Positions 34,839 to 64,000 of a stretch of DNA of 64,000 nt are shown here, piece by piece. The stretch comes from Anaerolineales bacterium (GTDB taxonomy: Bacteria > Chloroflexota > Anaerolineae > Aggregatilineales > J027), in the NCBI GenBank assembly GCA_020634155.1, contig JACKCI010000001.1, forward strand, positions 907,768-971,767. The letters run 5' to 3'. The notes under the pieces are model-generated. The model ran no database searches. It saw nothing but the letters and a program-made list of their open reading frames with translations, and was not told the DNA's origin. The stretch's first letter is position 1. Every line of letters starts with the position of its first letter. The translations under genes were made by a program, and so were the position numbers.

Positions 34839-37082
<2,244 letters not shown>

Positions 37083-37251
37083 AGACTTGTTACACTTTCT
37101 ACAAAAACAACGCCATTGTGGATTCAGCAACGGCGTGATTATCGTCGGTTAGCCTTTCTTCGTTACTATAACACAGTGGAGGGGTATCAGTTATGCCCGA
37201 TGTCCATAATTCGTGGTGCCAAAACACACAACTTGGCCTATAATTCATACT

Positions 37252-46938: not shown

Positions 46939-46955
46939 CTTGCGGCCTTCTGTTG

Positions 46956-46972
46956 AGAGGCTGTTTGAAAAG
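46956..46972 (+). repeat. IS left terminal inverted repeat (AGAGGCTGTTTGAAAAG)
   Basis: Matches the reverse complement of 47795-47811 at 16/17 positions. Confidence 0.75.
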
Positions 46973-46999
46973 TGGGGTAGGATAAGATAAAGTAAGGGC

Positions 47000-47356
47000 A
47001 TGAACGAGCGAAGAGTATACCCCAGTGATTTGACCGATCGAGAATGGGCGCTATTGGAGCCACACATTCCACCCCCCAAAGCAGGTGGAAGACCGCGCAG
47101 CAGTGACATGCGCGAGATCGTGAATGCCATTTTCTATGTGCTGAAAACGGGCTGTCAATGGCGTTGGCTACCGCATGGCTTTCCGCCAGCCGGGACGGTT
47201 TATCATTACTACAATACATGGCGCAAAGATGGAACATGGCGACGGATCAATGATGCGCTACGGGAAACATTGCGGGAGAAACTGGGTCGTGAAGCCACTC
47301 CGAGTGCGGGGAGCATTGATAGTCAGTCCATCAAAACGACCGAAAAAGGGGGGTAA
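47000..47356 (+). CDS. IS5-family transposase OrfA (N-terminal DNA-binding part)
   Basis: 118 aa; LTDREWALLEPHIPP...GRPR...REIVNAIFYVLKTGCQWRWLP, typical of IS427-group OrfA. Confidence 0.8.
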   Translation: MNERRVYPSDLTDREWALLEPHIPPPKAGGRPRSSDMREIVNAIFYVLKTGCQWRWLPHGFPPAGTVYHYYNTWRKDGTWRRINDALRETLREKLGREATPSAGSIDSQSIKTTEKGG

Positions 47357-47793
47357 GAGGCTATGATGGTGGCAAGCACATCAAAGGTCGCAAGCGCCAT
47401 TTGGTGGTCGATACGGAAGGGTTTGTGTTGCGAGCTTTCGTAACTGAGGCTAACTACCACGATGGTACTGTCGGTACGTGGCTCTTAGATGACTTGAGTA
47501 ATCGCTTTCCGCGTTTAGAAAAGTTATGGGCCGATGGCTCTTATCGTGGCACGTTTGTTGACCATGCTGCTGAACGTGGCATCACGGTTGAGATTACGAC
47601 CCGCTTGAGTGACCAACCCGGCTTTCAAGTCATTGCCCATCGTTGGGTGGTAGAACGCACCTTCGCATGGCTCAATACCTACCGTCGTCTCAGCAAAGAC
47701 TACGAGTATTGGGTCTACGCATCCGATGCCACTATCTACGCCTGTATGAGCCATCTTATGCTTCGCCGTTTGGCTCGTTTGGCTCCCACCTGA
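47350..47793 (+). CDS. IS5-family transposase OrfB (DDE catalytic part), expressed as OrfAB fusion by -1 frameshift
   Basis: The -1 frame relative to OrfA is open from about 47350 (…GVRGYDGGKHIKGRKRHLVVDTEGF…) through the DDE region (…HDGT…WADGSYRG…ERTFAWLNTYRRLSKDYE); the slippery run A5G6 lies at 47343-47353. Confidence 0.75.
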   Translation, partial: GVRGYDGGKHIKGRKRHLVVDTEGFVLRAFVTEANYHDGTVGTWLLDDLSNRFPRLEKLWADGSYRGTFVDHAAERGITVEITTRLSDQPGFQVIAHRWVVERTFAWLNTYRRLSKDYEYWVYASDATIYACMSHLMLRRLARLAPT

Positions 47794-48136
47794 CCTTTTC
47801 AAACGGCCTCTGAATATCAGGCGAGCTAGACTTAGTGGCGGGGGTAGCAGCAGTGCTATCGCCCTTGGCGCTGGTATCGGTGGTCTCGCTCTTAGCGCTG
47901 GTGTCCGTGGCATCACCGCCTTTGGTGGTGCTAGTCACACCCGCGCTGTTCTTGCCCCGGCTGTCGGTCACGTACCAACCAGACCCTTTGAACACCACGC
48001 CAGCAGGTTGAATGACTCGAAAAACCGTCCCCTCTGTCTCACACACGGCACAGGTCGTTAGGGGATCATCATTAAAACTCTGCTTGACCTCAAAGGAATT
48101 ATCACATGCACGACATTGATAGGCATAAACTGGCAT
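47756..48136 (-). CDS. FmdB-family zinc-ribbon protein with IS-altered C-terminus
   Basis: N-terminal MPVYAYQCRACDNSFEV...CAVCETEGTVFRVI zinc ribbon; low-complexity Thr/Ser/Asp tail; the last 17 codons (RPFEKVRWEPNEPNGEA) are encoded by the IS right end. Confidence 0.6.
   Translation of the reverse strand: MPVYAYQCRACDNSFEVKQSFNDDPLTTCAVCETEGTVFRVIQPAGVVFKGSGWYVTDSRGKNSAGVTSTTKGGDATDTSAKSETTDTSAKGDSTAATPATKSSSPDIQRPFEKVRWEPNEPNGEA
47795..47811 (-). repeat. IS right terminal inverted repeat (rc AGAGGCCGTTTGAAAAG)
   Basis: Reverse complement equals the left IR with one T/C mismatch. Confidence 0.75.
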
Positions 48137-48241: not shown

Positions 48242-51200
48242 TCATCCACCACCGGGGCGGAAGAAGCTCGGTTGCTCCTCAGCAGGTTGTTGACTACGGC
48301 AGATTTGCCAACTTTCACCCTGCTTAACCACATGCAGAGACGGATAGCCTGACGCGACCACTTCGCTTTGGGTTTCGGTACCGGGTTTGAAAACCATCAC
48401 CCCACCCCAATTAATTGTGCCTGAGTTACCTGCCAACTCGACGCTAATCTCTAGCTCGCGGAAATCCGCACCAAGATAGGGCTGGGCAACAAGGTTTTGG
48501 AAAGCTACAGCATCAATCGGGTAATCGGCTTGGGTTTTGTCTTCCGCACAGAATAACGCATTGTACAAATCAAAGTTGCCCGTTGTCAGAGCCTGCCAAT
48601 AGGCATAGCCTACTTCACGCACAACCCGCACATCAGTGGCATCCGTTTCAGCCGTAGACCCAATCTCGGTTCCATCATCCACATAGAGGGGGTCAGGAAT
48701 AGGGGCCAATCCACCACTAATACCCAAAGGCGGGAAAATGATAATGCGTGAGGTTTGCGGATCAGCCACATACACCTGCCCATCTTTTCCAAAAGCGATA
48801 CCACCGACAGTCTCCATACCTTGCGGGAAGCCATCCGGTGGCACCAGAGGTGTATTAAAGGACAAAACCGCCCCCCCCCGCAGGTCATAGGCCACTACTC
48901 GCGGGCCATTGTTACTTTCACTGGCATCCATATCTGATACCAATATCAATGTGCCATCTGGTGAGATAGACAGATAAGGACGATGCACAGAGTTCCGCGC
49001 ACCTGCCCACATATTGACATCCCAACTCATAACAAACGTACCATCACGGCGGAAGGCCGAGATTTTTTGATTCCACGTCTCGGCAACATAAAGCTCACCA
49101 GTAACCGGATGAATAGCCAACCCAACAGGTTCTGGCTCGGCTTGTAGGCCATTGCCTTGGGCAGTAATGTCGTATAGGTGCTGATAGTTGGCATCATAGA
49201 CACGAATGCGGTGCCCGCCTGTATCAGCTACAAAGATATTGCCTTCGTTATCAACTGCCACATCACGTGGGCCATAGAGGGACATCGGGCCACCATCATC
49301 TGGTGTACCAAAGGTGCCAAAGACCCCCACCATCTCGCCCGTCGGTGAATAGATAACAATACGGTGATTCCATGTATCCGCCACATAGATATTGCCATCA
49401 TGTGGACCAACCGCAATCCCCCAAGGTTCATTGAGGATTTCAGGGCCGCCAAAGACGTCAATGGAAGTGCCATCTGGGGCGAACTTCACAATACGATGAT
49501 TGCCCGTATCAGCAGCATAGACATAACCATCCGTATCAGATGCGAGGTCACGCGGGTTGAGTAACTCGCCGACGCCAAAAGCCGATTGAGCATTAATCTC
49601 TTGATAGACAGTATCTTCAGGATCAGGAATCAAGCGTTGGGCAACGCTCTGCCCACGCAAACCAGCATCCCAGATCTGAACGGCAAAGTCCTTCCGCACA
49701 TACATATACAACTCATCGGACACTGGCCAGCGCTCAATATTGAACTGCGGGTCATTGCGGCAACTATTGGTTATACGTTGCACACAGTTGGGGTCAAGGA
49801 CTCGTTCATCAGGGTCTGTTGAACCTTCGGGCTGGATATAGCACGCGGGCGTTTCACGCTCCACACATAGGGCCGTCGCATAAGAACCATAGTCGCGCTC
49901 CCACCAAATATCCCAAAGAGACTGTCGATAATACTTGGCTGAAGGGTTGACATCATCTGGCTCAAAGATATTGGTGATTCGGTCAGCATTGAGGTTGAAA
50001 TACTCCTGCATCGGCCACCACAAGCGAATCAGATCAAAGCGGTAGTAGTCCTTGCCGAGTATCCGCTCAATCTCCGTATTCTTGCGATTGCCCGCAATGA
50101 CGACCAACGCGCCCTCAATATTGCCTATTTGATTCTTGACATCCTCCCCAGTCCCCCACAGATAACGCTTGTCCGTGAAATCCCGCAAGTACCAGAGCAT
50201 GGGCCAACTGGAGTCATCATCATAGGCGACATGGATGTTCATGCCTTCGGGACTATGGTCAGCAAAATACATTAAGTCAGCCACCACATCCTTAACGGCG
50301 GGGCCAGCATGGGCATACACACCAAATTCGGTAGGATAGTCATAGTTAATGTAGGTAAATAGCCACGCTGCCCGCACCGTCAACATCGCCAGCAGTAAAG
50401 CAAACGCCCCTATGAACAAACGCCGCGCTTGGTCAAAACCGACATCCGCCGTTAAGCGCACACCAAAATACCCAGTGATTGCCAACGCAATAAGAGCCGA
50501 TATCCATCGCCCAGTAGCGTCAAGAGCCATCTGAGTTTGGCCTTGAAAAGGCAGATTATTACCTGTGGCATAGGGTAAGGCCAGTTGCGATAGGGCCACC
50601 AGAAACACAGGAACCACAAACAGCAGCAGTATCCACCCACTGCGTTTAAGCGCATCCCAGCGAATGCGCTCCACTACGCTCCCGATATACCAGCCACCAG
50701 CCAAGGTTAGCGGTAAGGAGAGATGGGTGGTCAACCAAGGCATTTTCTCACCAGCCATCGTCAAGGCCACTAAAATCAGAATGCCCCAGTAGCCAACTAA
50801 GGCCAAGAATGGCAAGCTACCGAGGTATTCATGATCGGTCTCGCTCATCAAGCGGTCTTGTTCAGGGTTATAGGCATAACGCGATACTCTGCCTTCACGC
50901 TGTCCCCATTCAGGCGATACCCACGCAGGACTGTCCTCACTGTCCACATTCGATTCATCTATTAGAACCTCGTCAGCTTCAATCAGAATGGGTTCATCAC
51001 CTACTACGATTTCCTCGCCCTCAGCCTGTTCACTTTGAGCAGCACGTGCTGCGGCAGCATTGAGCATAGCCTGTTGACGGCTACGGTAGCGGAAATCGAA
51101 GAAATGGGAGACTCCGGCAAAGCCCGCAAAAGCCGCCAAAATTGACGGCAAGAACTCATAGACGGGAAGTTGCACGAGTACATAATAGTATTGGGGTTGG

Positions 51201-53059
51201 CTTCCGCGCCGCACATCTTGTTGTTCGAGCCAATAGCCTAGCGACCCAATCAAGCCTGTGCCAATGCCGTTGCCATTGGTAAAAAAGGTTGTGAAAAAGA
51301 CAAGGAACAAGACGCCAAAGGCTGCCGCGGCAATCGGCCAAACTCGCCAATTCCACGCCAAACCCACCGCCGCACTCACCATCAGAAATGGAATCGCAGT
51401 GACAATCGCCGCTTGCACCGTTTCCAGCGGCAATGGTGCTTGGTCAAGGGTATAGCCTGCCCAAAATAAGGGGAAGGCCGCCAGCCAAGGAAAGACCATT
51501 GACCCCATAACAATCAATATGTCAAACGCTGGTTGGCGATTTAGCACATCCCACCAATTGGTGAGCAGCCGTGTAATCAATACACCCGTCACTGCCAGCG
51601 ATAGCACAACCCATGTGAGGAATATCGGGGCATTGTCATGTTCAAGGGTTTGGGAAACATCCTCAGCATTGGGGTCAATCGCTACAGGCCCCGTATTAGT
51701 CTCATCTGAGGGGTGGCTATGACGCTCCAAGACGAGCAAGATGCTCATAAACACAAACGCAATGACGAGCAGCGCCACAATGTCTTGCCATGTCGCCCGC
51801 TTGATAATGCCAATGAGGACAATACTAAAGACAAGGAACCCTAACGGAACAATCGTCCATTCCATAAAGATGTTCAGTTGGTTCTCAGCTAGTTTGGGTA
51901 TAAGCGCATTGGTTACCGGGTCATAAGCTTCAATGAAAATAGTGGCGGGCTTAACAATATCTAAGATGACCATACCCCATAACGCCATCACACTCCCAAC
52001 AATCGCCCCGGCAGCAACCAAGAGCATCGTTGACCGTGTGTTGTAGTAAATCGCGTTGGTGACCATGCGAACCGTGATAGGTAGCCCACCGCGCCGATTA
52101 AAAGCGATACGGATGAGGCCAAAAAACTCGACAATCGCCAACGCAATTAGCACACCATATAGTTGCAGAACGCGGTCTGGCCCTATCTCATGAGAGCCGA
52201 CATGAAAGCCTAAATCGCCAGAAATCAAACCGGAGTCTGTCTTATAGAACTCGTACCACACGCCGCCGATGGTGTATCCAAGTATCCCTACCCCAGCCAA
52301 AATAACTAGGTAGGCCAAAGGATAGAGCCACCAAGGAGGGGTCTCACGGCGTGGCGGTAACACTGCCGTAGCGTCCGCATCAACAGGCTGTCGGAAAGCT
52401 CCCCGCATAATGTCTTGTACCAAGCGCAGGAGCCAATACAGCGTCAAGAAGCTTCCGAAAATCGCCACATACATAAAGGAGACTTCTTTGGAGGCCAACA
52501 TCAACAGGAGCGCTCCGCTGAATACCGGAATCCAAATCGGGCGGCGCGGTTTCTCACCGTCTAGATATTGGAGCGTGGCATACAACATCACCATTGCAAA
52601 GAACATGGAGGGGATGTCGTGGCGAATGTAGCGGCTGTAGTACAAAATCATCGGGGAGATGAGAATGCCCACCGCTGCCAGCACCGCCCCTACCTTGCCC
52701 AACCAGCGCCGAAACAATAGGGGGAACATGACCAACGCCACCCCCAGCAACGCTGGGTAAATCCGCGCACTAAAATCGCTGGGGCCAAACAAGAAATAGA
52801 AGAATGCCGTTGCATGGAACAACAACGGCCCGTGCATCAAGGGGGTGTGGTCAAAACGCCCATATTCGTACAGTTCCCACGAATAATAGGTGTGCAAACT
52901 CTCGTCATGGCTCATCACCCGTAGGCCTAAATCCCAGAAGCGACTCAATACCGCCAAAATCAAAATGGCGGTATAGATGACAGCTTCCCAATTCAGGCTA
53001 TAGACACGGGCTAATACATGGTCGAAAGGCTGTTGACGGGTAGATGTTGTCGTTGCCAT
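48242..53059 (-). CDS. Giant integral membrane protein: N-terminal GT-C/PMT-like polytopic domain (companion family of Chlor_Arch_YYY, TIGR03663-like as I recall), 6-bladed NHL-repeat beta-propeller, then C-terminal about 150-aa domain
   Basis: 1605 aa; the N-terminal 500 aa has 12 or more TM helices with a DE-containing first loop (MSHDESLHTYYSWELYEYGRFDHTPLMHGPLLFH); more TM helices around residues 750-900; six NHL repeats ((Y/I)(V/F)AD(T)xNHRI(V/R)x(F/Y) recurring: YVYAADTGNHRIVKF, IYVADTWNHRIVIY, IFVADTGGHRIRVY, LYVAETWNQKISAF, VYVADPQTSRIIIF). Confidence 0.7.
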   Translation of the reverse strand: MATTTSTRQQPFDHVLARVYSLNWEAVIYTAILILAVLSRFWDLGLRVMSHDESLHTYYSWELYEYGRFDHTPLMHGPLLFHATAFFYFLFGPSDFSARIYPALLGVALVMFPLLFRRWLGKVGAVLAAVGILISPMILYYSRYIRHDIPSMFFAMVMLYATLQYLDGEKPRRPIWIPVFSGALLLMLASKEVSFMYVAIFGSFLTLYWLLRLVQDIMRGAFRQPVDADATAVLPPRRETPPWWLYPLAYLVILAGVGILGYTIGGVWYEFYKTDSGLISGDLGFHVGSHEIGPDRVLQLYGVLIALAIVEFFGLIRIAFNRRGGLPITVRMVTNAIYYNTRSTMLLVAAGAIVGSVMALWGMVILDIVKPATIFIEAYDPVTNALIPKLAENQLNIFMEWTIVPLGFLVFSIVLIGIIKRATWQDIVALLVIAFVFMSILLVLERHSHPSDETNTGPVAIDPNAEDVSQTLEHDNAPIFLTWVVLSLAVTGVLITRLLTNWWDVLNRQPAFDILIVMGSMVFPWLAAFPLFWAGYTLDQAPLPLETVQAAIVTAIPFLMVSAAVGLAWNWRVWPIAAAAFGVLFLVFFTTFFTNGNGIGTGLIGSLGYWLEQQDVRRGSQPQYYYVLVQLPVYEFLPSILAAFAGFAGVSHFFDFRYRSRQQAMLNAAAARAAQSEQAEGEEIVVGDEPILIEADEVLIDESNVDSEDSPAWVSPEWGQREGRVSRYAYNPEQDRLMSETDHEYLGSLPFLALVGYWGILILVALTMAGEKMPWLTTHLSLPLTLAGGWYIGSVVERIRWDALKRSGWILLLFVVPVFLVALSQLALPYATGNNLPFQGQTQMALDATGRWISALIALAITGYFGVRLTADVGFDQARRLFIGAFALLLAMLTVRAAWLFTYINYDYPTEFGVYAHAGPAVKDVVADLMYFADHSPEGMNIHVAYDDDSSWPMLWYLRDFTDKRYLWGTGEDVKNQIGNIEGALVVIAGNRKNTEIERILGKDYYRFDLIRLWWPMQEYFNLNADRITNIFEPDDVNPSAKYYRQSLWDIWWERDYGSYATALCVERETPACYIQPEGSTDPDERVLDPNCVQRITNSCRNDPQFNIERWPVSDELYMYVRKDFAVQIWDAGLRGQSVAQRLIPDPEDTVYQEINAQSAFGVGELLNPRDLASDTDGYVYAADTGNHRIVKFAPDGTSIDVFGGPEILNEPWGIAVGPHDGNIYVADTWNHRIVIYSPTGEMVGVFGTFGTPDDGGPMSLYGPRDVAVDNEGNIFVADTGGHRIRVYDANYQHLYDITAQGNGLQAEPEPVGLAIHPVTGELYVAETWNQKISAFRRDGTFVMSWDVNMWAGARNSVHRPYLSISPDGTLILVSDMDASESNNGPRVVAYDLRGGAVLSFNTPLVPPDGFPQGMETVGGIAFGKDGQVYVADPQTSRIIIFPPLGISGGLAPIPDPLYVDDGTEIGSTAETDATDVRVVREVGYAYWQALTTGNFDLYNALFCAEDKTQADYPIDAVAFQNLVAQPYLGADFRELEISVELAGNSGTINWGGVMVFKPGTETQSEVVASGYPSLHVVKQGESWQICRSQQPAEEQPSFFRPGGG

Positions 53060-53074
53060 ACATGCTCCAAAAAC

Positions 53075-53614
53075 TTAACGGTAACGCGCCTCGCGGCTGG
53101 GTTCAAGGGTAGCACCGGGCATCGGTGCTGGGCTGGCTGACCAGAGGATACTGGTAAGCTCATCGCGCTCGGTGGTTTCATTCGCCACCAACAATACGCT
53201 TTCAGCCTCTAAGGTACTATCTTGCACAACAGCGGTGCTGGTTTGCAGCGGTACATTGTGGGGCCAAGCGCCCGCCGCGTCAACCGCCGAATTGTGCAAA
53301 AAGAACGGTAACAGCACCAATAACACGGCCATGCTTCCCACCAAAATCATGGACTGAAAGTTAGTAGTAAGCAATGGGCGGCGCTTGGGGCGGGTAGCCT
53401 GTTCCAGAATCGACGGTAAAAGCGCCTTCAAACGGTCTGGGGCTGGCTCGCCAAACAGCGGCATCTCCCGCCGCAGTTCGGCCTGTGTCTGGCGAACCGC
53501 CTGATATTCACGTTGCCATGTGGCGGATTGTGCCAGATGGCGGGTAACTTTTACTCGTTGGTCAGGGGCCAATGTCCCCTCAAGATAGGCAATGAGTTGC
53601 TCCCGAATATCCAC
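53075..53614 (-). CDS. Anti-sigma factor (single-pass, small extracytoplasmic domain)
   Basis: 179 aa; N-terminal anti-sigma-like helices (MDIREQLIAYLEGTLAPDQRVKVTRHLAQSATWQREYQAV; no Zn-binding Cys/His); TM helix MILVGSMAVLLVLLPFFL; start 2 nt after the ECF sigma stop. Confidence 0.55.
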   Translation of the reverse strand: MDIREQLIAYLEGTLAPDQRVKVTRHLAQSATWQREYQAVRQTQAELRREMPLFGEPAPDRLKALLPSILEQATRPKRRPLLTTNFQSMILVGSMAVLLVLLPFFLHNSAVDAAGAWPHNVPLQTSTAVVQDSTLEAESVLLVANETTERDELTSILWSASPAPMPGATLEPSREARYR

Positions 53615-53616
53615 AG

Positions 53617-54201
53617 CTAACCAAATACCTCCTCCAACGCTAGTTTGGTTTCATCCATGACTTGTCGTAGAGATTGATGCGCCAGCCGCACCCGTGACTC
53701 GGCGGTTTTGGGTGGGATGTTAAGAATGTCCCCCATTTCTCGGTAGGTCAATCCCTGTCCATAGCGCAATGCGACAGCTTCGCGCAAGCGTGGCGAAAGC
53801 GTCTTGAGGGCTTCCCCCAACGCACGCTGGGCGTCTCGGCGGATGGTTGTCCGTTCTGGATTTTCGTCATCCGGCGCGGCAGGGTCTAGCCCATTCGCCA
53901 ATAAATCACTGAGTGCCACCATCGGCAACAGTTTGCGGCGGCGGGCATTGCGACAGCGGCTAATCGTGATGGTATATAGCCATGTACGGAATGCGCCCCG
54001 CTCTGGGTCATAGCGGGACAGGTTGCGAAACACGTACACAAAGACTTCTTGCACTACGTCTTCAGCATCTTGCTGATGCAACAACACACTATAGGCCAAA
54101 CGATAGACTTCTTTGGCATAGAGGTCATATAATGCAGTGCAGGCGCTTTGGTCGCCCATTAAACTACGCTGCAAAAGGTCAGAAAAAATTGGGTCGCTCA
54201 T
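53617..54201 (-). CDS. ECF-type RNA polymerase sigma-70 factor
   Basis: Start at internal Met (cat 54199-54201, MSDPIFSDLL), giving 194 aa; sigma-70 region 2 (YRLAYSVLLHQQDAEDVVQEVFVYVFRNLSRYDPERGAFRTWLYTI) and region 4 (LRYGQGLTYREMGDILNIPPKTAESRV). Confidence 0.8.
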   Translation of the reverse strand: MSDPIFSDLLQRSLMGDQSACTALYDLYAKEVYRLAYSVLLHQQDAEDVVQEVFVYVFRNLSRYDPERGAFRTWLYTITISRCRNARRRKLLPMVALSDLLANGLDPAAPDDENPERTTIRRDAQRALGEALKTLSPRLREAVALRYGQGLTYREMGDILNIPPKTAESRVRLAHQSLRQVMDETKLALEEVFG

Positions 54202-54226
54202 GTTAAACACTACACCCTTGCCTCGC

Positions 54227-56434
54227 CTATTGCGTAGTAACCGTCTGGACACCGTAGACATCGCTCCGAACCCACAACGTATAATGCAAATCAGGTGTTG
54301 GCTCAAAACGGGTCTGGCGGGTAAACAACCACGACCCGAAATCTGTCCAGTTCAATTCCGATAGTGACCACTGGGTATTCAATATAAAGTCCTGCCCCAC
54401 ATAATCTGCGCCCAACGCAACAGGCACTTGATCATAAGGCGTGATAACAGCAGCGGTAATGGTCTCAATACCCACACCCTCAACATAGGTTGTGTTGGGG
54501 AACTCACGCAGCAACCATGCCAACGCCCCATCGTCCGGCCCCTGCACTGTAATTGTCAGGCGGTCACGGGTGCCATTCTCAAAACGCGACATCTGCTCTA
54601 AGGTCTCAACCAGTCGGTGCGATTTTTCGAGCATCGGGGCTTGGTTCCAAAGCTCACGTGGGTCATCGCCAAAAGTATGACTCGCCTGCCACCCTAGCCC
54701 TAAGCCATAGACCATGCAATAGCCAAGTAGCCCTAGGCCCAAACCACGCCATGCGGCCCGTGTCCCCCACAGACTCCCCACTAGAAAATAGACTATCACC
54801 ATCAGCATCACCAAGAAAACCATTACCATCAGATTCAAAGGTGATTTGGCATAAGTTGAGACAAAACGGGTCAGAAGCCGAAACTCTGGAATATCAAGTT
54901 GGTAGCCGGGTAGGACATTGCCGATAATTCCGTGCTCCTCAACATCACCCGCATAAGGCAACACCATATATTGCCCGCGTTGGTCACCTGTCCCTGTAAT
55001 CTTAAGGAAATAACTACCAGCGCGGGGAAACGTGATTGGTTGCACCAAACCACGTCGCCCATCAGTATAGGTAAATGGCCCAGCGAGGAACCCATCGGGC
55101 GAATCAATCAACACAATAGGGTTAACACTGCTGTCAAGTTCTCGGATTTGAAAAACCAGCGTAGTGGGTTCGGGCACATACAACTCAAAGGTCGAAGTTG
55201 GATTGTTCAGGTCGTAGGTACCAATACGAGCGCTATTACTGAGGACAGTGGTATCTACAAAGTGGTTGTAAACCGGGCGGGTTTGGCCTTGCAGAATGCC
55301 AGAAATATTGGTGGCATTTATCGCCAAGGATGTAAGGAGTACCATCATCGTCACTGCATGGAGGGCTATCCCCCATGAGGGTACCACCCAATAGCCTGTC
55401 GATGGATTCCGCAGCATTTGAGCTGCCAGAAGCGCCGTTAAGCCCGCCGCAGGGATAACAACCCACAATGCTGCATCTGGTGTAGGATTGGCATACAAAA
55501 TGCTGACCACCAAACTCCACACGAACCAACCAACCAGCACATCTGCTAAGAAGTTGCGTTGCAGAGTGAATATCGCAATTAGCCCAAATAGTACCAGCCC
55601 AAAGTCATAGCGTAGCGCTACCCAAAAAGCATAGGCAAAGGGCGTTCCGTCAGGACGTTCAAACAGCCCTAGGAACAGCCAATAGAGGGTACTACCCGCT
55701 GACGTTAGACCCGATGGAGCCATCATAAAGCCTGTGCCGACAATTACAATCACGCCTAAAGCCGCCATCAAGCCTTCACCCCAAGGCCACTGTTTCAATA
55801 TGGCTCCAATCTTTACCGGGGGATTGGCCCGCCAGAGAGCCGTTGCTAATCCTACTATGATACCAAACAGAGTGATTGCGCCAGTAGGTTCGGTCAATAC
55901 CAAGATGACAGCGCCCGCGCAGGTGGCAGTAATGGCAAAGGCATTGCGTCCAGTCTCAGCATAGCGTCGAACAGCCCATACCATCACAAACACAATCGCC
56001 ATTGTCCACGTCACAGCCCCCATCATACGTGAGGCGGTCAACGCTACGGGGGAGATTGCCAGCAGGGTCGCCATGAGCAATGCCGATGTCTTACCCATTG
56101 ACTCACGCCATAGCAATGGCCCCAAGACCAACAGTGTTCCAACAATTGCGGTTGGGATACGGGCGTTGGTCGCACTCGGCGCAGAGATGAAAAACGTGAC
56201 TTGATTGGCAAAAGCCATCAAAGGGTTGTGTGCAACAGCCGATTCAACACCGCGCACCGATTGCAGCGCTGCTAGTGCTTCGGTCGCACTCCGTGCATCT
56301 AATGGCACATCACCCAATGAAATCACACGCATAGCAAAAGCCAATACCAATAACCCGATATAGGCTAAGGTCTCTACCCGAATACCCAGCCGAAAAGTGG
56401 GTGTTTCTTGGGCGTGTTCGTAAGCCATTTCCAT
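54227..56434 (-). CDS. Polytopic membrane protein, GT-C-like; homologous to the N-terminal domain of the 48242..53059 protein (TIGR03663-like companion family)
   Basis: 735 aa; its N-terminal 150 aa align with the giant protein (NPLMAFANQVTFFISAPSATNARIPTAIVGTLLVLGPLLWR versus HGPLLFHATAFFYFLFGPSDFSARIYPALLGVALVMFPLLFRR); about 14 TM helices; an extracytoplasmic beta-rich insert. Confidence 0.6.
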   Translation of the reverse strand: MEMAYEHAQETPTFRLGIRVETLAYIGLLVLAFAMRVISLGDVPLDARSATEALAALQSVRGVESAVAHNPLMAFANQVTFFISAPSATNARIPTAIVGTLLVLGPLLWRESMGKTSALLMATLLAISPVALTASRMMGAVTWTMAIVFVMVWAVRRYAETGRNAFAITATCAGAVILVLTEPTGAITLFGIIVGLATALWRANPPVKIGAILKQWPWGEGLMAALGVIVIVGTGFMMAPSGLTSAGSTLYWLFLGLFERPDGTPFAYAFWVALRYDFGLVLFGLIAIFTLQRNFLADVLVGWFVWSLVVSILYANPTPDAALWVVIPAAGLTALLAAQMLRNPSTGYWVVPSWGIALHAVTMMVLLTSLAINATNISGILQGQTRPVYNHFVDTTVLSNSARIGTYDLNNPTSTFELYVPEPTTLVFQIRELDSSVNPIVLIDSPDGFLAGPFTYTDGRRGLVQPITFPRAGSYFLKITGTGDQRGQYMVLPYAGDVEEHGIIGNVLPGYQLDIPEFRLLTRFVSTYAKSPLNLMVMVFLVMLMVIVYFLVGSLWGTRAAWRGLGLGLLGYCMVYGLGLGWQASHTFGDDPRELWNQAPMLEKSHRLVETLEQMSRFENGTRDRLTITVQGPDDGALAWLLREFPNTTYVEGVGIETITAAVITPYDQVPVALGADYVGQDFILNTQWSLSELNWTDFGSWLFTRQTRFEPTPDLHYTLWVRSDVYGVQTVTTQ

Positions 56435-56446
56435 GAAATTCGTCCT

Positions 56447-59400
56447 TTATTCAGGCCGGATACGATAAACAGCCACATCCCCATAATGACATACGGGGTC
56501 AAGCAGTTGGGCAAACTTACTGAGGCCGGGTGAGTCTAGACCATCGCTGCCACCATAACGCCGTATCTCGGAGACCCCCACTACGACATAATCCACCCCA
56601 TAAGGTGCGATTATTTGCTTGGCTTCGTTCCACTGATCAGCAGGCATACGATAAAACAAATCAATATCAGAAGCACGAGCATCGGCATGAATCACGGTAC
56701 TATAATCCTCACCACGCCATTGTCGCTCATGGTTATCCCAACCGAGCAAGGTCGGAATGCCTGTGTACATACTAAAACGGCCAAGTTCAGGGGTATAGGC
56801 TCCACCACTAGCCTCTACCAACACCGCATCCGATTTATACGGCTCCAAGTCAGCAAGGCACTGCATCGCCTTGAACTCATCTTCGCTAATCGGCCATGAC
56901 CGCCCAGCCCACACAAAAGTCGAGGAGCCATCGAGTGTAATGGGTGCCTCTTCACGGCACAACTCCCCTTCGCAAGCTCGCGCTTGGGGACGGCTCATCT
57001 CATACAGGAAGCGGCTAGGGATTGCATAGTAGGGATAGAGCAAAACACTAAACAAAACGATGGCCGCCAGTCCACCATAGGCGACATAGCCTACCCGCCA
57101 CTGGCGAGATGGTGGGGACACTTCACTATGGAGACGTTCAGGGCCACGCAATACCGCATAAACTGCATAGGCGGCGCTAATTGATAGCAATGACCACGCT
57201 TGATAATAGAGCTTGAACACGGTATTAATGCGGCTACTGAAGTTATCTCGCAAGTACATGAAATCTGGCATCAGGACGGCTAAGACGCCTGCCCCTATCA
57301 AAAGTAAAGCTGCACCTGTATTGGGGCTAAAGCCAACTGCTGAATCCTGCTGACGCCCCCCACGTGTAAACAGGCGCATCGCCACCACACCTGCCAATAA
57401 AAGCAATATCGCTTCGCTTCCAATAGCCGTCGTGCGCCGCATAATCACACGCCGCGCCATCGCTACCGACGATTCACCATCTAGCACGCCACCTAATAGC
57501 GATGATCGTGCAGTACAAGCCCATTCTGAGAAGCTATCGACCTGCCCCGGCTTCTCACCAAGGGCGGGGCATTGCCAGTTAATAAACACAGTAGAGATTG
57601 TTGGCACCAAGAACATCATCAATAAGCCAATCAGCACAATGCTAATGACCCCTGTCCAGTTGAGTCGGTGCCGTACTCGCCACGCTTGCCCCAGCACAAA
57701 AGGTGCAATCAAAAGGATAAAAGCGCCGAATTGCAGAAAAGCCTGCTGAGTACGGGTAGGATGAATGATATTGGGGAAAAAGCCATTGGCTTGGCTGGCA
57801 AAACTCTCTAACCATAAGAAGTAAAAGCCGTAGAACGTCAGGAAGAGGACAGCACCAAAGCGCCCAACGTGGCTCCAGTCAGTATCGTCCAAGAGCCAAT
57901 TGACCAACAACGTTGCGGGTATCGACACAAACAGCGCCAACACCATTTGCAACACAAAACGCACCAACGGCACAGTATCAAGGCCAGCAGGCAGGTTATT
58001 CGTCAAACTGAGGTCAATCCCACGCTGGCTCAGGAAAAACAAGACCACAATATATACAGGGCCGATTAGCCAGCGATTGAGGTCAGACCGCCGCCGCAAG
58101 GTGAGTGTATCAACAAACTCAGCCCATCCTGTCAGGCTACCTGTGCCGTTACGAGATAAGCGTCGCACTGCCTCTGCTGCAACCACCACCAACAGATATA
58201 CGGCATCCCACGCATTGGCAAAAATCATGCCACCGATAAAGATGCCATAGATAATCATCTCCCAATACTGGAGAGGTGTGGGGCGTAAGACCAATGCCAC
58301 GGCCAAGCCAATCACCAATACGGTGAAGGGTAAGCCAAGGACATGTGGGTGATTGTCCGACAGGATAAAACTAAACTGAGGGATTTCAGCAATTGGTTTC
58401 GGTTCAAAATGATTGCCAGACAGATCACGGTCACGCACAAGACGACTATGGGCGAACCACCACCAGTAATCCCAACCCAGTGGTTGGGGGTCATCATCCC
58501 AACTCGGAATTCCATCGTTATCCGGATCAGGCAAGGCTTGGTAATTTTCCATTAGGGGGCTATTAGGGTCAAGCCGTACAACCTCGTCGCTTTTATAAAT
58601 ATCCAGATTGCGCGTACCGTCAGCATTACGTCCCCCATCGGTATAAAAAGGGCCAGCCCGTCCATGCACATCCCAGAAGTTAAAATAATCGTCGCTGACA
58701 ATCTGATTCACAATTGGGATATTGGAGGTATAGCCACGAAATGGCAACTCAACTAATACTGTCCCCAGATGCCCACCCAGCGCCAAGAAAACCGCCGCTA
58801 ATAAGCCAATCCCTAGGCCAACTTCAATACCCCCTGTGCGCCAGCGTTGCAATGGGCCGGCAGAGCAAACAAGGTTATAGCCGACCCCGAAGGCCGTGGT
58901 CATCGTTAAGGCAAAAAGCAAAGCATCAATCAAATTGAAGGCCATACCAGTGGTGACATTGCTTAAGTCAGCCAAGCCTGCTGCCAACACATATCCAAAG
59001 TAGTAGTAACTGATGGCGTAACCCGAAAGCCAAGGGTCTTTAGGAGGAAAGGTCAACGAATTGCGAATGCCATTGATGAAGGCCATCTCCATTGGCTTCT
59101 CGGTGGAGGTCAATTCGGGATTATGAGCTTGCATATAAGCCCAAGCCACAAACGTCACGGCAAACAACAATTCCGTGACGATAATCAATGGGGACTGCTC
59201 AATCAGCCACTGGCGTAATTCCTTGAATGTTGGACGTTGCGACCAGCGTACCCAAACCCATAGGCTTGCAATCAGCACTAAGAACCACGCAAAGGCCATC
59301 GCGCCGGGGTCGTTTTGTAGCAAGCCAATACTGGCTAGGAGCCAGAAGACCGCCCCCACAAGCAGCAGCCCTGCCGCCCGTGCCATCGCATAGCCGCGAT

Positions 59401-59599
59401 CCGCCAAACCGGACAGCAACCGGAATAGCAGAGGCAACACAGCCCAACCAGCCATTGTGGTAAGCAACCACCATGAAAACACATAGCGGCCCTCGTTAGT
59501 CAACCACTCTCGCGCCAATTCAAGTGGAGAGAGTGAGAATATCGCCCCCCCAAAGCCGATTATCGGCACGACCCAAAGCAAACTTAACCATCGTCGCAT
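56447..59599 (-). CDS. Chlor_Arch_YYY (DUF2298) family integral membrane protein
   Basis: 1050 aa; hallmark YYYxGY motif in context KPMEMAFINGIRNSLTFPPKDPWLSGYAISYYYFGYVL; more than 20 TM helices; C-terminal extracytoplasmic domain of about 200 aa shared with the upstream paralog. Confidence 0.75.
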   Translation of the reverse strand: MRRWLSLLWVVPIIGFGGAIFSLSPLELAREWLTNEGRYVFSWWLLTTMAGWAVLPLLFRLLSGLADRGYAMARAAGLLLVGAVFWLLASIGLLQNDPGAMAFAWFLVLIASLWVWVRWSQRPTFKELRQWLIEQSPLIIVTELLFAVTFVAWAYMQAHNPELTSTEKPMEMAFINGIRNSLTFPPKDPWLSGYAISYYYFGYVLAAGLADLSNVTTGMAFNLIDALLFALTMTTAFGVGYNLVCSAGPLQRWRTGGIEVGLGIGLLAAVFLALGGHLGTVLVELPFRGYTSNIPIVNQIVSDDYFNFWDVHGRAGPFYTDGGRNADGTRNLDIYKSDEVVRLDPNSPLMENYQALPDPDNDGIPSWDDDPQPLGWDYWWWFAHSRLVRDRDLSGNHFEPKPIAEIPQFSFILSDNHPHVLGLPFTVLVIGLAVALVLRPTPLQYWEMIIYGIFIGGMIFANAWDAVYLLVVVAAEAVRRLSRNGTGSLTGWAEFVDTLTLRRRSDLNRWLIGPVYIVVLFFLSQRGIDLSLTNNLPAGLDTVPLVRFVLQMVLALFVSIPATLLVNWLLDDTDWSHVGRFGAVLFLTFYGFYFLWLESFASQANGFFPNIIHPTRTQQAFLQFGAFILLIAPFVLGQAWRVRHRLNWTGVISIVLIGLLMMFLVPTISTVFINWQCPALGEKPGQVDSFSEWACTARSSLLGGVLDGESSVAMARRVIMRRTTAIGSEAILLLLAGVVAMRLFTRGGRQQDSAVGFSPNTGAALLLIGAGVLAVLMPDFMYLRDNFSSRINTVFKLYYQAWSLLSISAAYAVYAVLRGPERLHSEVSPPSRQWRVGYVAYGGLAAIVLFSVLLYPYYAIPSRFLYEMSRPQARACEGELCREEAPITLDGSSTFVWAGRSWPISEDEFKAMQCLADLEPYKSDAVLVEASGGAYTPELGRFSMYTGIPTLLGWDNHERQWRGEDYSTVIHADARASDIDLFYRMPADQWNEAKQIIAPYGVDYVVVGVSEIRRYGGSDGLDSPGLSKFAQLLDPVCHYGDVAVYRIRPE

Positions 59600-59602
59600 A
59601 AG

Positions 59603-62600
59603 TTAGGGAACCTGTACTACTTGTTGTGGATAATCAACATTCGGCACCACCTGATAAATCACATCGGTACTGATGCGGTCTGGTGGGCAATCTTGCACGG
59701 TAAAGATATTGGGATGCACGCAGACCTGCTGTTCATAGGCTCGCGTCAATAGCCCCATCTCCACCATATCATCGAACTTCGCCAAGCCTGCTGACAGGTT
59801 TTGGCGGAAGACTGATGGGTCTGCGGCGGGGTCTGCCTCTTTAATATCCTCGTAAATAATACGCTCGAAGGTGCCAACAATGACATACTCGACATCGTAA
59901 TAGTCAATCATTGACCACGCCTCGGCAATATCAGGAGTGGTGTAGAAAGTACGGATATTTTGCAGACGATCATTCAACAGGCGGTCTAGCCCATCCAGAT
60001 TACGCTGCTGACTCTGATGGAAACGCCAACCAAGGATAGTTGGCAGGCCAGTTTGAATAGCAATCCGCGAACTCCATGAATATTCAGTGTGTTGGCCTTC
60101 AATAATGGTTGGTGTACCTTGCACATTATCCTCTAGCCAGTGAATCATCTGGTAATCGCCATTGAGGTTGAACCAAACACCCGGAGTCGGGCCACCACCG
60201 TCAGGGTCTTCACCATGCGGAGCCACTTGCATAAAAGCAGTGCCGTCCAGTGTCAGCGGTGTTTCAGCCTTATTGAAGCGGTCAACGAAACGACCTTGGG
60301 TGGCGGTAATGGGATAGAGCAAAGCGATACTGAGCAAAATAGCCAGCACCATCTGCCAAACCCCACTCAGGGCAGGTCGCCAGCGTGCCGCAGAACGCAA
60401 CATCCACGCCAAACTCACGCCACTGGCAATACTAAGAAGAAGCCACACTTGGATATAGAACTTGAAGACTGTGTTCTGACGCCCAATGTCGCCACGCAGC
60501 ACAAAGTATTCGACTGCCATTGATAGGCCCAAGGCCAGCCCCGCTAATATATACACCCAGCGCTCCACATGGCTTTGGTCAGGCAAGAGAAACAGAACCG
60601 CCAGCCAAATGAACATCGGCAGCGCCACCCAATACACCGGATAGTCTAGACCCAGCACAATCGTAATCAGCACCGTCGCAGGAATAAGGCCGACCACCGC
60701 CAAGAACGGCACCCCGTATGAGCGTATATCCGCAACACGATGCCGCCGCAACCAGCGGGCTGTCTGCCAAACCAGCATACTACCGATGATGAAGATAAAG
60801 ACACCATGTATGTCCAAATAGGCCCAAAGCGGAGTGCGGTCATTCTGCCATTTCAGAATCTCACCATAGGCGGTAGCAAAATAACTGCTAAAGGGCCATA
60901 TCGCCACAAAACTTATCACGCCAAAACCAAGCAGCCGTGCCACCCACGCAAGAATCGCCTCACGGTTGAAGCGATTACCCAAGAGCAACAAACCCGCAGC
61001 ATAGAGCGCAACCACCACGGCCAACAAACCAACACCCCACACCGTTGTTTCACCAATTGAGAAGTAGGGTTTGAGTTTACCTTCGCAAAGAGGGGATAAA
61101 GTTAGGGGATCAACCGTGCGGGCGTCAATCTCCGTGCAAAAGGCCGGAATCTGGCCCGCCGTGAGTTGGTTGTCATATTGGCGTGTTTCATATAAATACA
61201 ACCCACCGCGCAACATCATCCCCAAGGGCAACGCCAGCAGCAAAGGCCACAGCATCATGACATAACGTACATCAAGGAAGCGCAACAGGCGTTGATAGAG
61301 TGAAACAGGCGGCACATCTTGACGCAAGCGTCCCTGCCCGATCCATGCCGCATAGGTAAGCCCCACCACACTCAAAACCATGTAAGTGGGCCAATCCCAT
61401 GTATTGGTAGGGCGCAATAGGCCCGCGGTCATGCCACCAATCGCCAAAGCCAGCCCCGCAGCCCAAATAGGCCGTAGACGCCGCCCTGCCCCCAAAATCT
61501 CCGCTGTCAGCCACAAAATCACCAATAGAGTCAAGGGCATTGCCATCATGTGAGCATGCATATCACCATAAAGGAAGGTGAAGTAGGGCATCTCAGCAAT
61601 AGCATTATGCCCACGTCCATTATCGAGTTCCGCAATCACGCGTGTTGGTGCCCAATACCAACGGTGGGCTGGGACAGATAAAGGGCGTTCACCACTCACG
61701 ACTCGCTTAAAACCACGCGCCATTGCTGCGAACCATTCCCTCGACTGCGTAAAATATGAGACACCCGCATCGGCTTCAATTTGGGCTAGTTCGGTATCAC
61801 TCGGAAACCGCCCGTTCTCATTTTGAAAGACCCAAATTGCGGTATCAATGTTCGATTGGCGCAAAACGGAAGAGGGTGTGTAATCGCCCGCTTGGGCAAT
61901 CCCATTGGCAAAAACCCGCACGGTGTCTAAATTGCCTAAAACCGCCGCCAGCAGCAAGGCAATAATCCCCGCCACATAGGGACTAGCCGAAGGGCCGGGA
62001 TATTCGGTCTCACGCGCCGAAGATTGATGGGTCAAATGCCGACGCTCATTCGTCCATGCCACTAAGTTATAAGCGACACTAAAGGCTCCCATCCCTGTCA
62101 TCGAAAACAGGGTCGGCAATAACAAGTTATAGGCAAGGCTTGGCGGCACACCCAGCAGCTTGGTTGGCGCACCAACCAACACATATCCCCAATAGTAATA
62201 ATTGATATAGCCATTCGCATACCAAGGGTCGATAGGCGGGAAGATGGTACTCCGCAACACCCCATTAAAATAGGCCATATTCATAGGCTTTTCGCCACCA
62301 AAAGAGCCATGCCACAGATCAGGGTTACCCAAGCGCACCCCTAGAAAAAACAGGAACATGGCAAGGGCAATGCCTTCAATAATCAGCAAATGCCGCCACT
62401 TGGCTCGTATAAAAGCCATTAACTGCTGACGGCGTACAAAAGCGATGACACCATTGATCAATGTTAGGCCCAGCAGCAGACCAGTCAAGCCTTGTTGTGA
62501 CCATAATGGCAGGGTTAGCGTGCTGCCAAACCATGCCACCCATGCGACCAATAACCACGCCATCAGCTTACCCACCGCAAACCCTCGGTCAGGAAGGCCA

Positions 62601-64000
62601 ACAAAGATAACCTCCAGCAAAGGTAAGCACATCCACCCTGCCAGCACCATCAATCCCCACCAAATGATGACCGTCAGCACTTGGTTGCGTTCATAGAAAC
62701 GGCTAAAGAGGTCTGACCATGTACCACCATCGCGCTGGGTGGCAAGTTGTTCGTCTGTAAATTGCAGAGCAGTTTGGCTCTTGGAAGCTGTTGGAGCATC
62801 CCATTTAATGCGATTAATGGGTTCAATCACATAAGGATCAGGGGCATCGTCCGCTGACCGGATATTGACCCCATCCAGAATAGCCGCTGCTTTTTCAGGT
62901 GTATATTCGGCAGTCTTCCGCAATAGAAACACTGCTGGATGGTCATAAACATGGAAGGCTTCTTCGGCCTCTAGTTCGTTGCGCCAATCGGGTAAATCGT
63001 CAGTGGGCAGCACTTGGTCTTGCCAATGGAAGGGGCCAAACTCCGGTTCAGCTACAAAAGTTCGAACCACTTCAAAGCCCAATTCACCTGAAAACAGCGC
63101 CTCATAATAACGGTTGGTCATCGGCCAGCGGGTAGGGATACGCGACTGCGAATCATAGAAGCGGTTGCTGCCCACCACCAGATAATCCATCTGGTTGAGT
63201 TGATCAAGCAGTTGGTCACGCTTCGAGACCTCATCCGGCCAGAACATATTCATCGTGATGCCGATGTAGTAGCCTGTGTAGAGATTTACGGCGGGAATAT
63301 ATAGTGTACACATACCCGACGGCAAGTCGTCACGATAGGACATGCCGATGGGTACTGGACAAACAGGCGTCGGCAATGGGTCATCCCAAGGGCCTTCCCA
63401 TGCCACTGCTGCACCGCCAATCCCAACCCAGTCATCGGGTGCAAAGGTCAAGGTATAGCGCTCACCCGCCTCAACTGAAAACGGTTCATCTAACTCCAGC
63501 CTGACTTCAGGGCCAAACACCAAATGCCCATCATCAACCGCGTTGAAGTCCCCCGTTGCCACCGCTTCGGCTGAAAGGCCAGAGGCCCCAGTGCGTCGAT
63601 CATCCTTCAAGATAACGCGCACCGTCTCAGGTGTGGTATCGCTGAGAGCATCACTAACATGCGGTATCACAATCTGGCGAATCGCCCCAGTTGCATTGGC
63701 AACAAATTCATAATCAGATTGAACGCTACCGCTGAAATACGCAATATCGCCCGAAGTCGTGGGGAGGGGAAAGGTCAACTCTTCAATATAGGGTTCGTCT
63801 GTCTCTAGCGTGCGGTAGAACATCGTGATATGCGAAAATCCAATGCCGCTACCGTCATTGGTGGCTAGGGTGACAGGGCCACCTTCTAAAACCTCGACTT
63901 CTAGCCAATAGGAAGCAACTGAATCACCAATCTCAATCGGTGGCTCAAACAAGACTGTGTACTCGGTACCCAGCGGGCCACCACCCCCTGCATTCAAGTC
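59603..64000 (-). CDS. Chlor_Arch_YYY (DUF2298) family integral membrane protein, larger paralog with about 450-aa N-terminal extracytoplasmic domain (5' partial; continues past window end)
   Basis: At least 1464 aa. The track 'Met' is a TTG at the window edge, with an in-frame codon before it, so the true start is beyond 64000. YYY motif [39 protein letters not shown]. The C-terminal domain is homologous to that of the 56447..59599 protein (TLDG...LLGW...YVVVG/YVIVG). Confidence 0.75.
   Translation of the reverse strand, partial: [1465 protein letters not shown]

Follow-up and report, generated by a model that had tools for sequence, protein, structure and literature searches.

The 64,000-nucleotide stretch of DNA analysed here, which we refer to as the window, comes from an Anaerolineales bacterium of the phylum Chloroflexota (assembly GCA_020634155.1, contig JACKCI010000001.1, positions 907,768 to 971,767). 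Its right-hand end is occupied by minus-strand genes for very large polytopic membrane proteins, with genes for an extracytoplasmic function (ECF) sigma factor and its anti-sigma factor embedded among them. We put the probability at about 0.6 that this is a conserved Anaerolineae cluster for an ECF-sigma-controlled, multi-subunit machine of glycosyltransferases of the C type (GT-C), which acts on an envelope acceptor by way of polyprenyl-phosphate sugars. In broader terms, the cluster probably builds or decorates a cell-envelope glycan. The initial annotation, made from the letters of the DNA, had spoken of a regulated envelope glycosylation machinery; this proposal gained support from hidden Markov model (HMM) matches, predicted folds, synteny, gene fusions, and a promoter-like motif, while glycosylation itself is what we infer. 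Two outcomes that had been named as telling against it, a lack of matches to the two family models and a lack of a GT-C fold in the predicted structures, did not occur. The functional link between the genes is drawn from their conserved order, the fusions, and the shared motif. In the direction of transcription, the features of the cluster are:

59603..>64000, minus strand: YYY-A, the C-terminal 1465 codons of a giant Chlor_Arch_YYY/DUF2298 protein, the frame being open to base 64000
56447..59599, minus strand: YYY-B, a complete 1050-amino acid (aa) Chlor_Arch_YYY/DUF2298 protein
54227..56434, minus strand: a 735-aa polytopic protein, degenerate paralog within the TIGR03663/PMT_2 relationship
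54206..54238, minus strand: weak candidate ECF-type promoter of the sigma gene, ACTACGCAAT-N13-GTGTAGTG, with GTGTAG as its second half
53617..54201, minus strand: ECF sigma factor, group 4, 194 aa from its ATG
53075..53614, minus strand: anti-sigma factor, 179 aa
48242..53059, minus strand: a 1605-aa TIGR03663 (Agl23-family)/PMT_2 GT-C protein, by HMM matches
48710..49612, minus strand: NHL-repeat beta-propeller of the 1605-aa protein (residues ~1150-1450; Pfam NHL, 114 bits)
47756..48136, minus strand: Zn_ribbon_8 (FmdB-type) small protein (PF09723, 46 bits)

The six consecutive genes from YYY-A to that of the 1605-aa protein are separated, in transcription order, by gaps of 3, 12, 25, 2, and 15 nt, just as had been read initially.

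YYY-A and YYY-B had been assigned to TIGR03662, and the HMM comparison placed both above the family cut-off of 300.25 bits (494 and 367 bits, respectively), with scores of 328 and 281 bits against PF10060 (gathering threshold (GA) 27.8). The two proteins are 29% identical over 460 aa (BLASTP, E 3e-32). The YYYxGYVL motif that had been noticed in both indeed lies in register, with ISYYYFGYVL of YYY-B facing its counterpart at the aligned position of YYY-A. Some 13-16 hydrophobic helices are predicted in a YYY protein. The visible part of YYY-A begins with a soluble region (residues 1-430), which found no BLASTP match in the periplasmic domain of the 1605-aa protein (E above 2), and continues with a YYY module of the GT-C type. 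On the overlapping Logan contig L001, YYY-A reaches at least 1727 aa and is still incomplete, and its orthologs in three related loci (L002, L004, and L006) are 2371-2383 aa long. The N-terminal 800 aa of YYY-A orthologs match PMT_2 in 17 of 18 sequences (best E 5e-15) and carry an invariant H-P-D-E motif after the first transmembrane (TM) helix of this PMT_2-like module. By analogy with these orthologs, YYY-A itself would be a double GT-C protein, PMT_2-like::YYY, with its N-terminal module lying outside the window.

An alignment of 75 YYY sequences yielded an extensive list of invariant residues: E143, T166-E-K-P-M170, P185-P-x-D188-x-W, and I196-S-Y-Y-(Y)-x-G-Y203 (Y198, Y199, G202, and Y203 of the YYYxG motif being invariant throughout); R386, D390, E405, D415-x-H-P-H419, N462, D465, and R479-R480; and D785, R790, N792, K796, Q800, and W954..H957..Q-W-R-G963. 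D67, which directly follows TM1, is conserved in only 65 of the 75. The acidic invariants E143, E167, D188, D390, E405, and D415 are candidates for catalytic residues by their alignment positions. YYY-A retains the family invariants with conservative changes and, because of this, both YYY proteins look active.

The AlphaFold2 (AF2) model of YYY-B was of high confidence (predicted local distance difference test (pLDDT) 91.6, predicted template modelling score (pTM) 0.93), and the five best Foldseek matches to it were DPY19 and full-length AfAglB, at weak E-values of 1.5e-3 to 1.2e-2. As modelled, YYY-B consists of a GT-C fold core and a C-terminal globular domain like that of AglB/STT3. These matches, together with the invariant W954..H957..QWRG motif in the C-terminal domain, are what would be expected if the YYY proteins were bacterial counterparts of the oligosaccharyltransferases (OSTs) AglB/STT3/PglB, or of DPY19, that place a lipid-linked glycan or sugar on S-layer or secreted proteins, while the remaining GT-C proteins of the cluster lengthen the glycan outside the cell. 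We regard this explanation as decidedly unlikely. No Pfam STT3 match was obtained for the YYY proteins, and a profile search of the family against PDB sequences returned noise only (best E 0.064), with no OST among the matches. The C-terminal motif, W954-x-x-H957-x-x-QWRG, is variable at the position after W954 and WWDYG is absent. Sequence identity to AglB/STT3/PglB and DPY19 is 9-16%. What the YYY family shares with AglB/STT3/PglB is the fold of the C-terminal domain only.

The 1605-aa protein scored 238.3 bits against TIGR03663 (cut-off 126.25) and 34.8 bits against PMT_2 (GA 26.1). Beyond this shared part it contains an extra TM bundle, a periplasmic-type alpha/beta domain, the NHL beta-propeller that had been recognised at the outset, and a ~145-aa C-terminal domain. 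A phmmer search of the PDB with the NHL region found the NHL domain of TRIM71 (E 8e-32) and the sensor domain of PknD (E 8e-16). Among 74 sequences of the 1605-aa family, the invariant residues are S50-H-D52-E53-S-L-H56, H71, H76-G-P78, H82, R143, Y144, R146, D148, and K191-E192. The HDESLH that had been singled out in the 1605-aa protein is thus part of a family-wide signature. D52-E53 directly follow TM1 (helices at residues 24-41 and then 51-66), and the DE, HGP, and Arg set as a whole sits in the first extracytoplasmic loop region, as in ArnT/PMT-type enzymes. The DE/HGP/two-Arg signature of the TIGRFAMs description of TIGR03663 agrees with these invariants.

High-confidence models of one member each of the YYY and TIGR03663 families gave structural matches to GT-C glycosyltransferases only, with high fold scores to ALG12, ArnT, and Pmt4 for the 1605-aa family. 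The resemblance to GT-C enzymes that had been claimed for these proteins is therefore borne out by PMT_2 and by the models, in which both families have the GT-C fold. Common descent of the two families was considered and rejected. The invariant TIGR03663 strings GSLGYW...RGSQPQYYY and GEKMPWL (residues 606-626 and 770-776 of the 1605-aa protein) superficially recall ISYYYFGY and TEKPME of the YYY family; profile-profile alignment with hhalign gave a probability of 2%, and the shared "YYY" and "EKPM/EKMP" strings are therefore no evidence of common descent.

A protein identical to the 1605-aa protein is present in NCBI as "TIGR03663 family protein [Anaerolineales bacterium]", close homologs carry the Agl23 name in their annotation, and more than 1500 NHL-fused homologs exist. 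Many NHL-fused TIGR03663 homologs (P0179-P0181, P0184, P0185, and P0189 among others) also have an FGE-sulfatase domain (PF03781), and further domains are present in a few (PF17170, PF02469); the protein is therefore modular at its extracytoplasmic end.

The initial annotation named no experimental function for TIGR03663, a statement that is now outdated: NCBIfam calls the family "flippase activity-associated protein Agl23", and Chen et al. 2024 (PMC11182771) regard Agl23 of Haloarcula hispanica as a putative hexose-P-dolichol flippase. They report that Agl23 suppresses a yeast rft1 deletion and that, once purified, it translocates M5GN2-PP-Dol in liposomes. The 1605-aa protein resembles Agl23 in its membership of TIGR03663 and in the DE, HGP, and Arg residues. 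It differs in being bacterial and ~1600 aa long, in its additional TM bundle, periplasmic domain, NHL propeller, and C-terminal domain, and in its linkage to an ECF sigma factor. Whereas Agl23 is reported to be a flippase, the modelled fold and the invariant residues of the 1605-aa protein look transferase-like.

This precedent lends itself to a division of labour in which the TIGR03663/PMT_2-like modules (the 1605-aa protein, the 735-aa protein, and the N-terminus of YYY-A) translocate or present lipid-linked sugars, and the YYY modules alone carry out the transfer, each YYY being coupled to its own flippase. Besides the family name and the liposome and yeast results, this explanation would account for the pairing or fusion of one PMT_2-like module with each YYY module, and for the persistence of the 735-aa protein without a DE dyad (both described below). 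We nevertheless consider it unlikely, though the most serious of the competing explanations. The invariant DE, HGP, and Arg set of the 1605-aa family is typical of catalytic GT-C enzymes, and the fold scores to ALG12, ArnT, and Pmt4 likewise favour catalysis. The archaeal knock-out phenotype, which concerns the use of hexose-P-Dol, would also fit a Dol-P-hexose-dependent transferase, and the flippase precedent is archaeal. For the proposed glycosyltransferase machine, Agl23 counts as a precedent too, being a TIGR03663 member that acts on dolichol-linked sugars.

The 735-aa protein had been taken for a second TIGR03663 member, so that both families would be duplicated in the cluster. Only the 1605-aa half of that TIGR03663 pair stood, as the 735-aa protein scored 66.6 bits against the same model (71-85 bits for its orthologs) and 19.7 bits against PMT_2, below the respective cut-off and GA. 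The N-terminal region that it had been said to share with the 1605-aa protein is real, with 30% identity over 188 aa (BLASTP, E 2e-14). The 735-aa protein is best described from this comparison as a diverged paralog of the 1605-aa N-terminus that is outside TIGR03663 by the curated threshold. DE is replaced by TE, consistent with the absence of a DE pair noted at the start, and HGP by HNP, such that the equivalent of R143 alone is kept, and the alignment of the 735-like family contained no invariant acidic residue in the N-terminal region. Because it falls below the family cut-off and is devoid of invariant catalytic-type residues, the protein is probably non-catalytic and a partner of YYY-B.

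How general the arrangement is was assessed by a scan of one genome per species, in which six-frame open reading frames (ORFs) were searched with HMMs from our own alignments, and tblastn was added for the sigma factor. The scan returned 80 loci, and the synteny counts that follow have as denominators the loci with enough flanking sequence. All 80 are from Chloroflexota, mostly Anaerolineae, except for two oddly labelled metagenome-assembled genomes (MAGs): L019 and L037 carry a full Anaerolineae-type cluster under the labels "Bacteroidetes bacterium" and "Pleurocapsa sp.", which probably reflect a binning or labelling error and not a true occurrence outside Chloroflexota. YYY-A lies directly upstream of YYY-B in 59/65 loci, and a 735-like gene directly downstream of YYY-B in 64/68. 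Further downstream, a 1605-like gene is found in 37/52 loci, a sigma gene in 35/52, and both in 35/52. The more distant lineages Villigracilis and Brevefilum have the YYY-A/YYY-B/735 trio only. Gene order is kept from 91% down to ~30% protein identity across many Anaerolineae families. The duplication, the propeller fusion, and the embedded sigma pair, which had been pointed out as features of this locus, are present as described and, given the synteny counts and the number of NHL-fused homologs, are standard for the class and not peculiar to this genome.

Gene fusions join the families as well. In locus L031, a single ORF of 1468 aa (protein P0087, with domains PF10060 and PF13231) is an in-frame YYY-B::735 fusion, with a YYY module at residues 2-801 and a 735-like module at residues 862-1461. 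Five GT-C modules are encoded in the cluster, and to every YYY module there belongs one PMT_2/TIGR03663-like module, either paired with it or fused to it.

The embedded regulatory pair proved to be what it had been taken for. The sigma factor, whose start we placed at the ATG at codon 36 of the listed TTG ORF (the TTG and other longer starts overlap the gene for the 735-aa protein), scored 104 bits against TIGR02937, 71 bits against Sigma70_r2, and 44 bits against Sigma70_r4_2, and contains no regions other than 2 and 4. No other protein of the cluster is as well conserved (50-76% identity across loci). The anti-sigma gene begins 2 nt past the sigma gene, and its product has an N-terminal zf-HC2 domain (23.9 bits, GA 22.2; E 3e-7 with NCBIfam anti-sigma models) and one predicted TM helix (residues 88-106), followed by a short extracytoplasmic tail. 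The pair resembles SigW-RsiW, SigR-RsrA, and SigE-RseA in the sigma regions 2 and 4 only, in the gene for a single-pass zf-HC2 anti-sigma factor directly downstream, and in a bipartite upstream motif in relatives. It differs from them in its position mid-cluster among structural genes, instead of heading a small operon of its own, and in the degeneracy of the motif in the window.

This motif was recognised in aligned related loci, 50-110 nt before the sigma start codon, and has the form T[GA]AGGA[AT]n-N13-GTGTA[TGA]A, or TGAGGAAT-N13-GTGTA, with fixed spacing. ECF promoters have a GGAAT-type -35 and a GT-rich -10, and the motif upstream of the sigma gene resembles them; we read it as a candidate promoter of the cluster's own sigma factor. 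A position weight matrix (PWM) was trained on sigma-upstream sites only, with true sites scoring 18-34 bits. In 1.57 Mb of loci it found 58 sites of at least 17 bits and 0 in the reversed-sequence control: 35 upstream of sigma, 15-17 upstream of YYY-A (at 30-100 nt), and 2 upstream of the 735-like gene. The motif occurs before YYY-A in 15/57 loci compared with 6/285 random windows, the YYY-A sites being outside the training set. The site upstream of sigma in the window (54238..54206) is at the position that matches the strong motif of the 35 related loci, and it resembles a 14.6-bit site before YYY-A in L002, the closest NCBI relative. The PWM scan of the window returned no site above 11 bits and, therefore, no regulon member is callable in this genome from the window.

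These results bear on the claim that the genes form one transcript. The common strand, the short gaps, and the conserved order speak for it; the ECF-type motif upstream of sigma in relatives makes a single transcript doubtful. Two sigma-driven units seem likelier, since in relatives the motif stands both before sigma (35 loci) and before YYY-A (15 loci).

As we picture it, the membrane-bound anti-sigma factor would hold the ECF sigma factor until an envelope signal frees it. The freed sigma would then drive its own unit (sigma, anti-sigma, and the NHL giant); in some lineages, about a quarter to a third of them, it would also drive the YYY-A/YYY-B/735 unit through the TGAGGAAT-N13-GTGTA promoter. 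Like Pmt1-Pmt2 or EmbA-EmbB, the membrane proteins might assemble into hetero-oligomers, which would draw sugars from polyprenyl-phosphate carriers on the outer side of the membrane and pass them to an envelope acceptor, be it a polysaccharide, a sheath, or an S-layer protein. In such a machine the NHL propeller could serve as an acceptor-binding or sensing domain, and the degenerate 735-aa protein as a subunit of YYY-B for lipid-substrate handling or scaffolding.

Several results weigh against the proposed machine. What points to complex formation is synteny and fusions only; no gene for a polyprenyl-phosphate sugar synthase was present within the 64-kb window; and the sole characterised TIGR03663 member, the archaeal Agl23, is described as a flippase and not as a transferase. 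On the regulatory side, the motif is missing before YYY-A in most loci, and the sigma-upstream site of the window, at 9.3 bits, does not stand out from the best chance sites of the window. Scans of the window for sigma-70 promoters and intrinsic terminators gave counts at chance level (18 compared with 16.9, and 19 compared with 20.3, in shuffled sequence) and are therefore uninformative on operon structure. The uninformative scans, the weakness of the motif in this window, and the ~30% of loci with enough flank that are without sigma and the NHL giant beside the YYY trio might suggest that the genes are neighbours without a common function, their tight spacing a product of genome compaction and the sigma pair a regulator of unrelated genes elsewhere. 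We strongly disfavour this explanation and consider it very improbable, as it is at odds with the maintenance of gene order at ~30% identity, with the fusions that join the families, and with the recurrence of the sigma-upstream motif before YYY-A.

Among known systems, the closest in organisation to the proposed glycosyltransferase machine are perhaps the mycobacterial EmbC-EmbA-EmbB and Aft arabinofuranosyltransferases and yeast Pmt1-Pmt2, which act as homo- or heterodimers on polyprenyl-phosphate sugars. The likeness lies in several large GT-C paralogs side by side and in extracytoplasmic carbohydrate- or acceptor-binding domains. The Anaerolineae cluster differs in having no membership of those families at the sequence level, in belonging to another phylum, in combining two unrelated GT-C families, one of them with a degenerate paralog, and in its internal ECF sigma/anti-sigma pair. 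With Chlor_Arch_YYY/DUF2298 (TIGR03662, PF10060), the likeness of both YYY proteins is at the level of the family itself, by cut-off scores and YYYxG motif. In the literature searched, which included GT-C and Chloroflexi, we found no functional account of DUF2298/PF10060/TIGR03662; one Chloroflexi paper lists a DUF2298 gene beside PMT_2 genes in a neighbourhood table and nothing more. Matches to "YYY domain" were set aside, as they concern the unrelated, propeller-associated Y_Y_Y domain.

Catalogues already list both families and their co-occurrence, and public records carry annotations of the proteins. The present analysis adds the fold assignment of the YYY family, the pairing logic of the five modules, the degenerate partner, the class-wide conservation, the sigma-linked motif, and the list of YYY invariant residues. 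DUF2298/Chlor_Arch_YYY has been catalogued without a function for more than a decade and now becomes testable. For its partner family, the archaeal Agl23 is the sole precedent, and whether that protein is a flippase or a transferase is debated. A conserved, co-regulated set of five GT-C modules would be a hallmark of the Anaerolineae, a group that is abundant in sludge, sediments, and mats, and whose envelope is poorly understood. Candidate catalytic residues, a motif that predicts the regulon, and relatives in culture, Aggregatilinea lenta for one, offer a route to the glycan and to the question of flippase or transferase. No new principle is involved, as GT-C systems with several paralogs are familiar, and so are envelope genes under ECF control.

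A bolder variant, which we put forward tentatively and consider improbable, is a flip-and-transfer machine of a kind not described before. Each YYY protein would be a transferase whose C-terminal domain is OST-like, and would be in physical contact with an Agl23-like module of GT-C fold that delivers the polyprenyl-phosphate sugar across the membrane; the ECF sigma factor would induce the whole on envelope stress. Its product might be a surface glycan specific to the class, or an OST-like modification of proteins in bacteria, that defines the Anaerolineae envelope; if true, this variant would also decide whether Agl23-type proteins flip, transfer, or do both.

The extent of the cluster exceeds what the window contains. 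According to gene calls, the order in the three orthologous loci L002, L004, and L006, at ~50% protein identity, is the same: a polytopic protein of ~911-949 aa, YYY-A, YYY-B, the 735-like protein, ECF sigma, anti-sigma, the PMT_2+NHL giant (1640-1741 aa), and Zn_ribbon_8. The Zn_ribbon_8 gene is the conserved last gene of the cluster in close relatives, being found in the same place in all three loci, and its product is 50-69% identical across relatives. Directly upstream of YYY-A, the polytopic membrane protein of 911-949 aa (L002:1-2785, L004:137-2872, L006:1-2721), which gave no Pfam or NCBIfam match, is conserved at a distance of 8-50 nt in these loci, a region that is outside the window, and possibly belongs to the cluster as well. 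L004 has a UbiE-type methyltransferase gene 35 nt ahead of the gene for the polytopic protein. Because the relatives add the polytopic protein, a full-length YYY-A, and the Zn_ribbon_8 gene, the whole unit is ~23 kb with up to eight genes and is truncated by the window. The initial description of a >16-kb cluster of six genes was hence right about the six genes and fell short of the full extent.

Downstream of the cluster, an insertion sequence (IS) element occupies window positions 46945-47822 (878 bp), with 28-nt terminal inverted repeats that are 82% complementary. It has two ORFs in succession on the plus strand, DUF4096 (47000-47356) and a DDE_Tnp_1 transposase (47401-47793), which look like an IS5-type frameshifted transposase. 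The right end of the element, with its inverted repeat at 47795-47822, overlaps the last ~22 codons, at the 3' end, of the Zn-ribbon ORF. The element lies between the Zn-ribbon gene and a gene (45907-46938, plus strand) whose 343-aa product has a TIR_2 domain at the N-terminus and an FHA domain at the C-terminus; this type of gene also flanks the cluster in L002, where it directly adjoins the Zn-ribbon gene. A PADLOC scan of the neighbouring genes, the TIR/FHA gene included, gave no defence-system match.

The remainder of the window includes a Cache/HAMP/PAS histidine kinase gene (37213-39453, plus strand) and, just downstream of it, a gene for a 502-aa SGNH/AlgX-like protein (39465-40973, plus strand), possibly of the polysaccharide O-acetyltransferase type; these two envelope or signalling genes are ~8 kb from the cluster. 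On the minus strand are genes for an 856-aa alpha-glucan phosphorylase of the DUF3417 type (41010-43580) and for a 763-aa malic enzyme fused to a phosphotransacetylase-like domain (34839-37130). The other genes of the window are of a housekeeping nature: arginine metabolism, a xanthine-dehydrogenase-type cluster with YqeC/MobA, penicillin amidase, glycogen synthase, and GH3.

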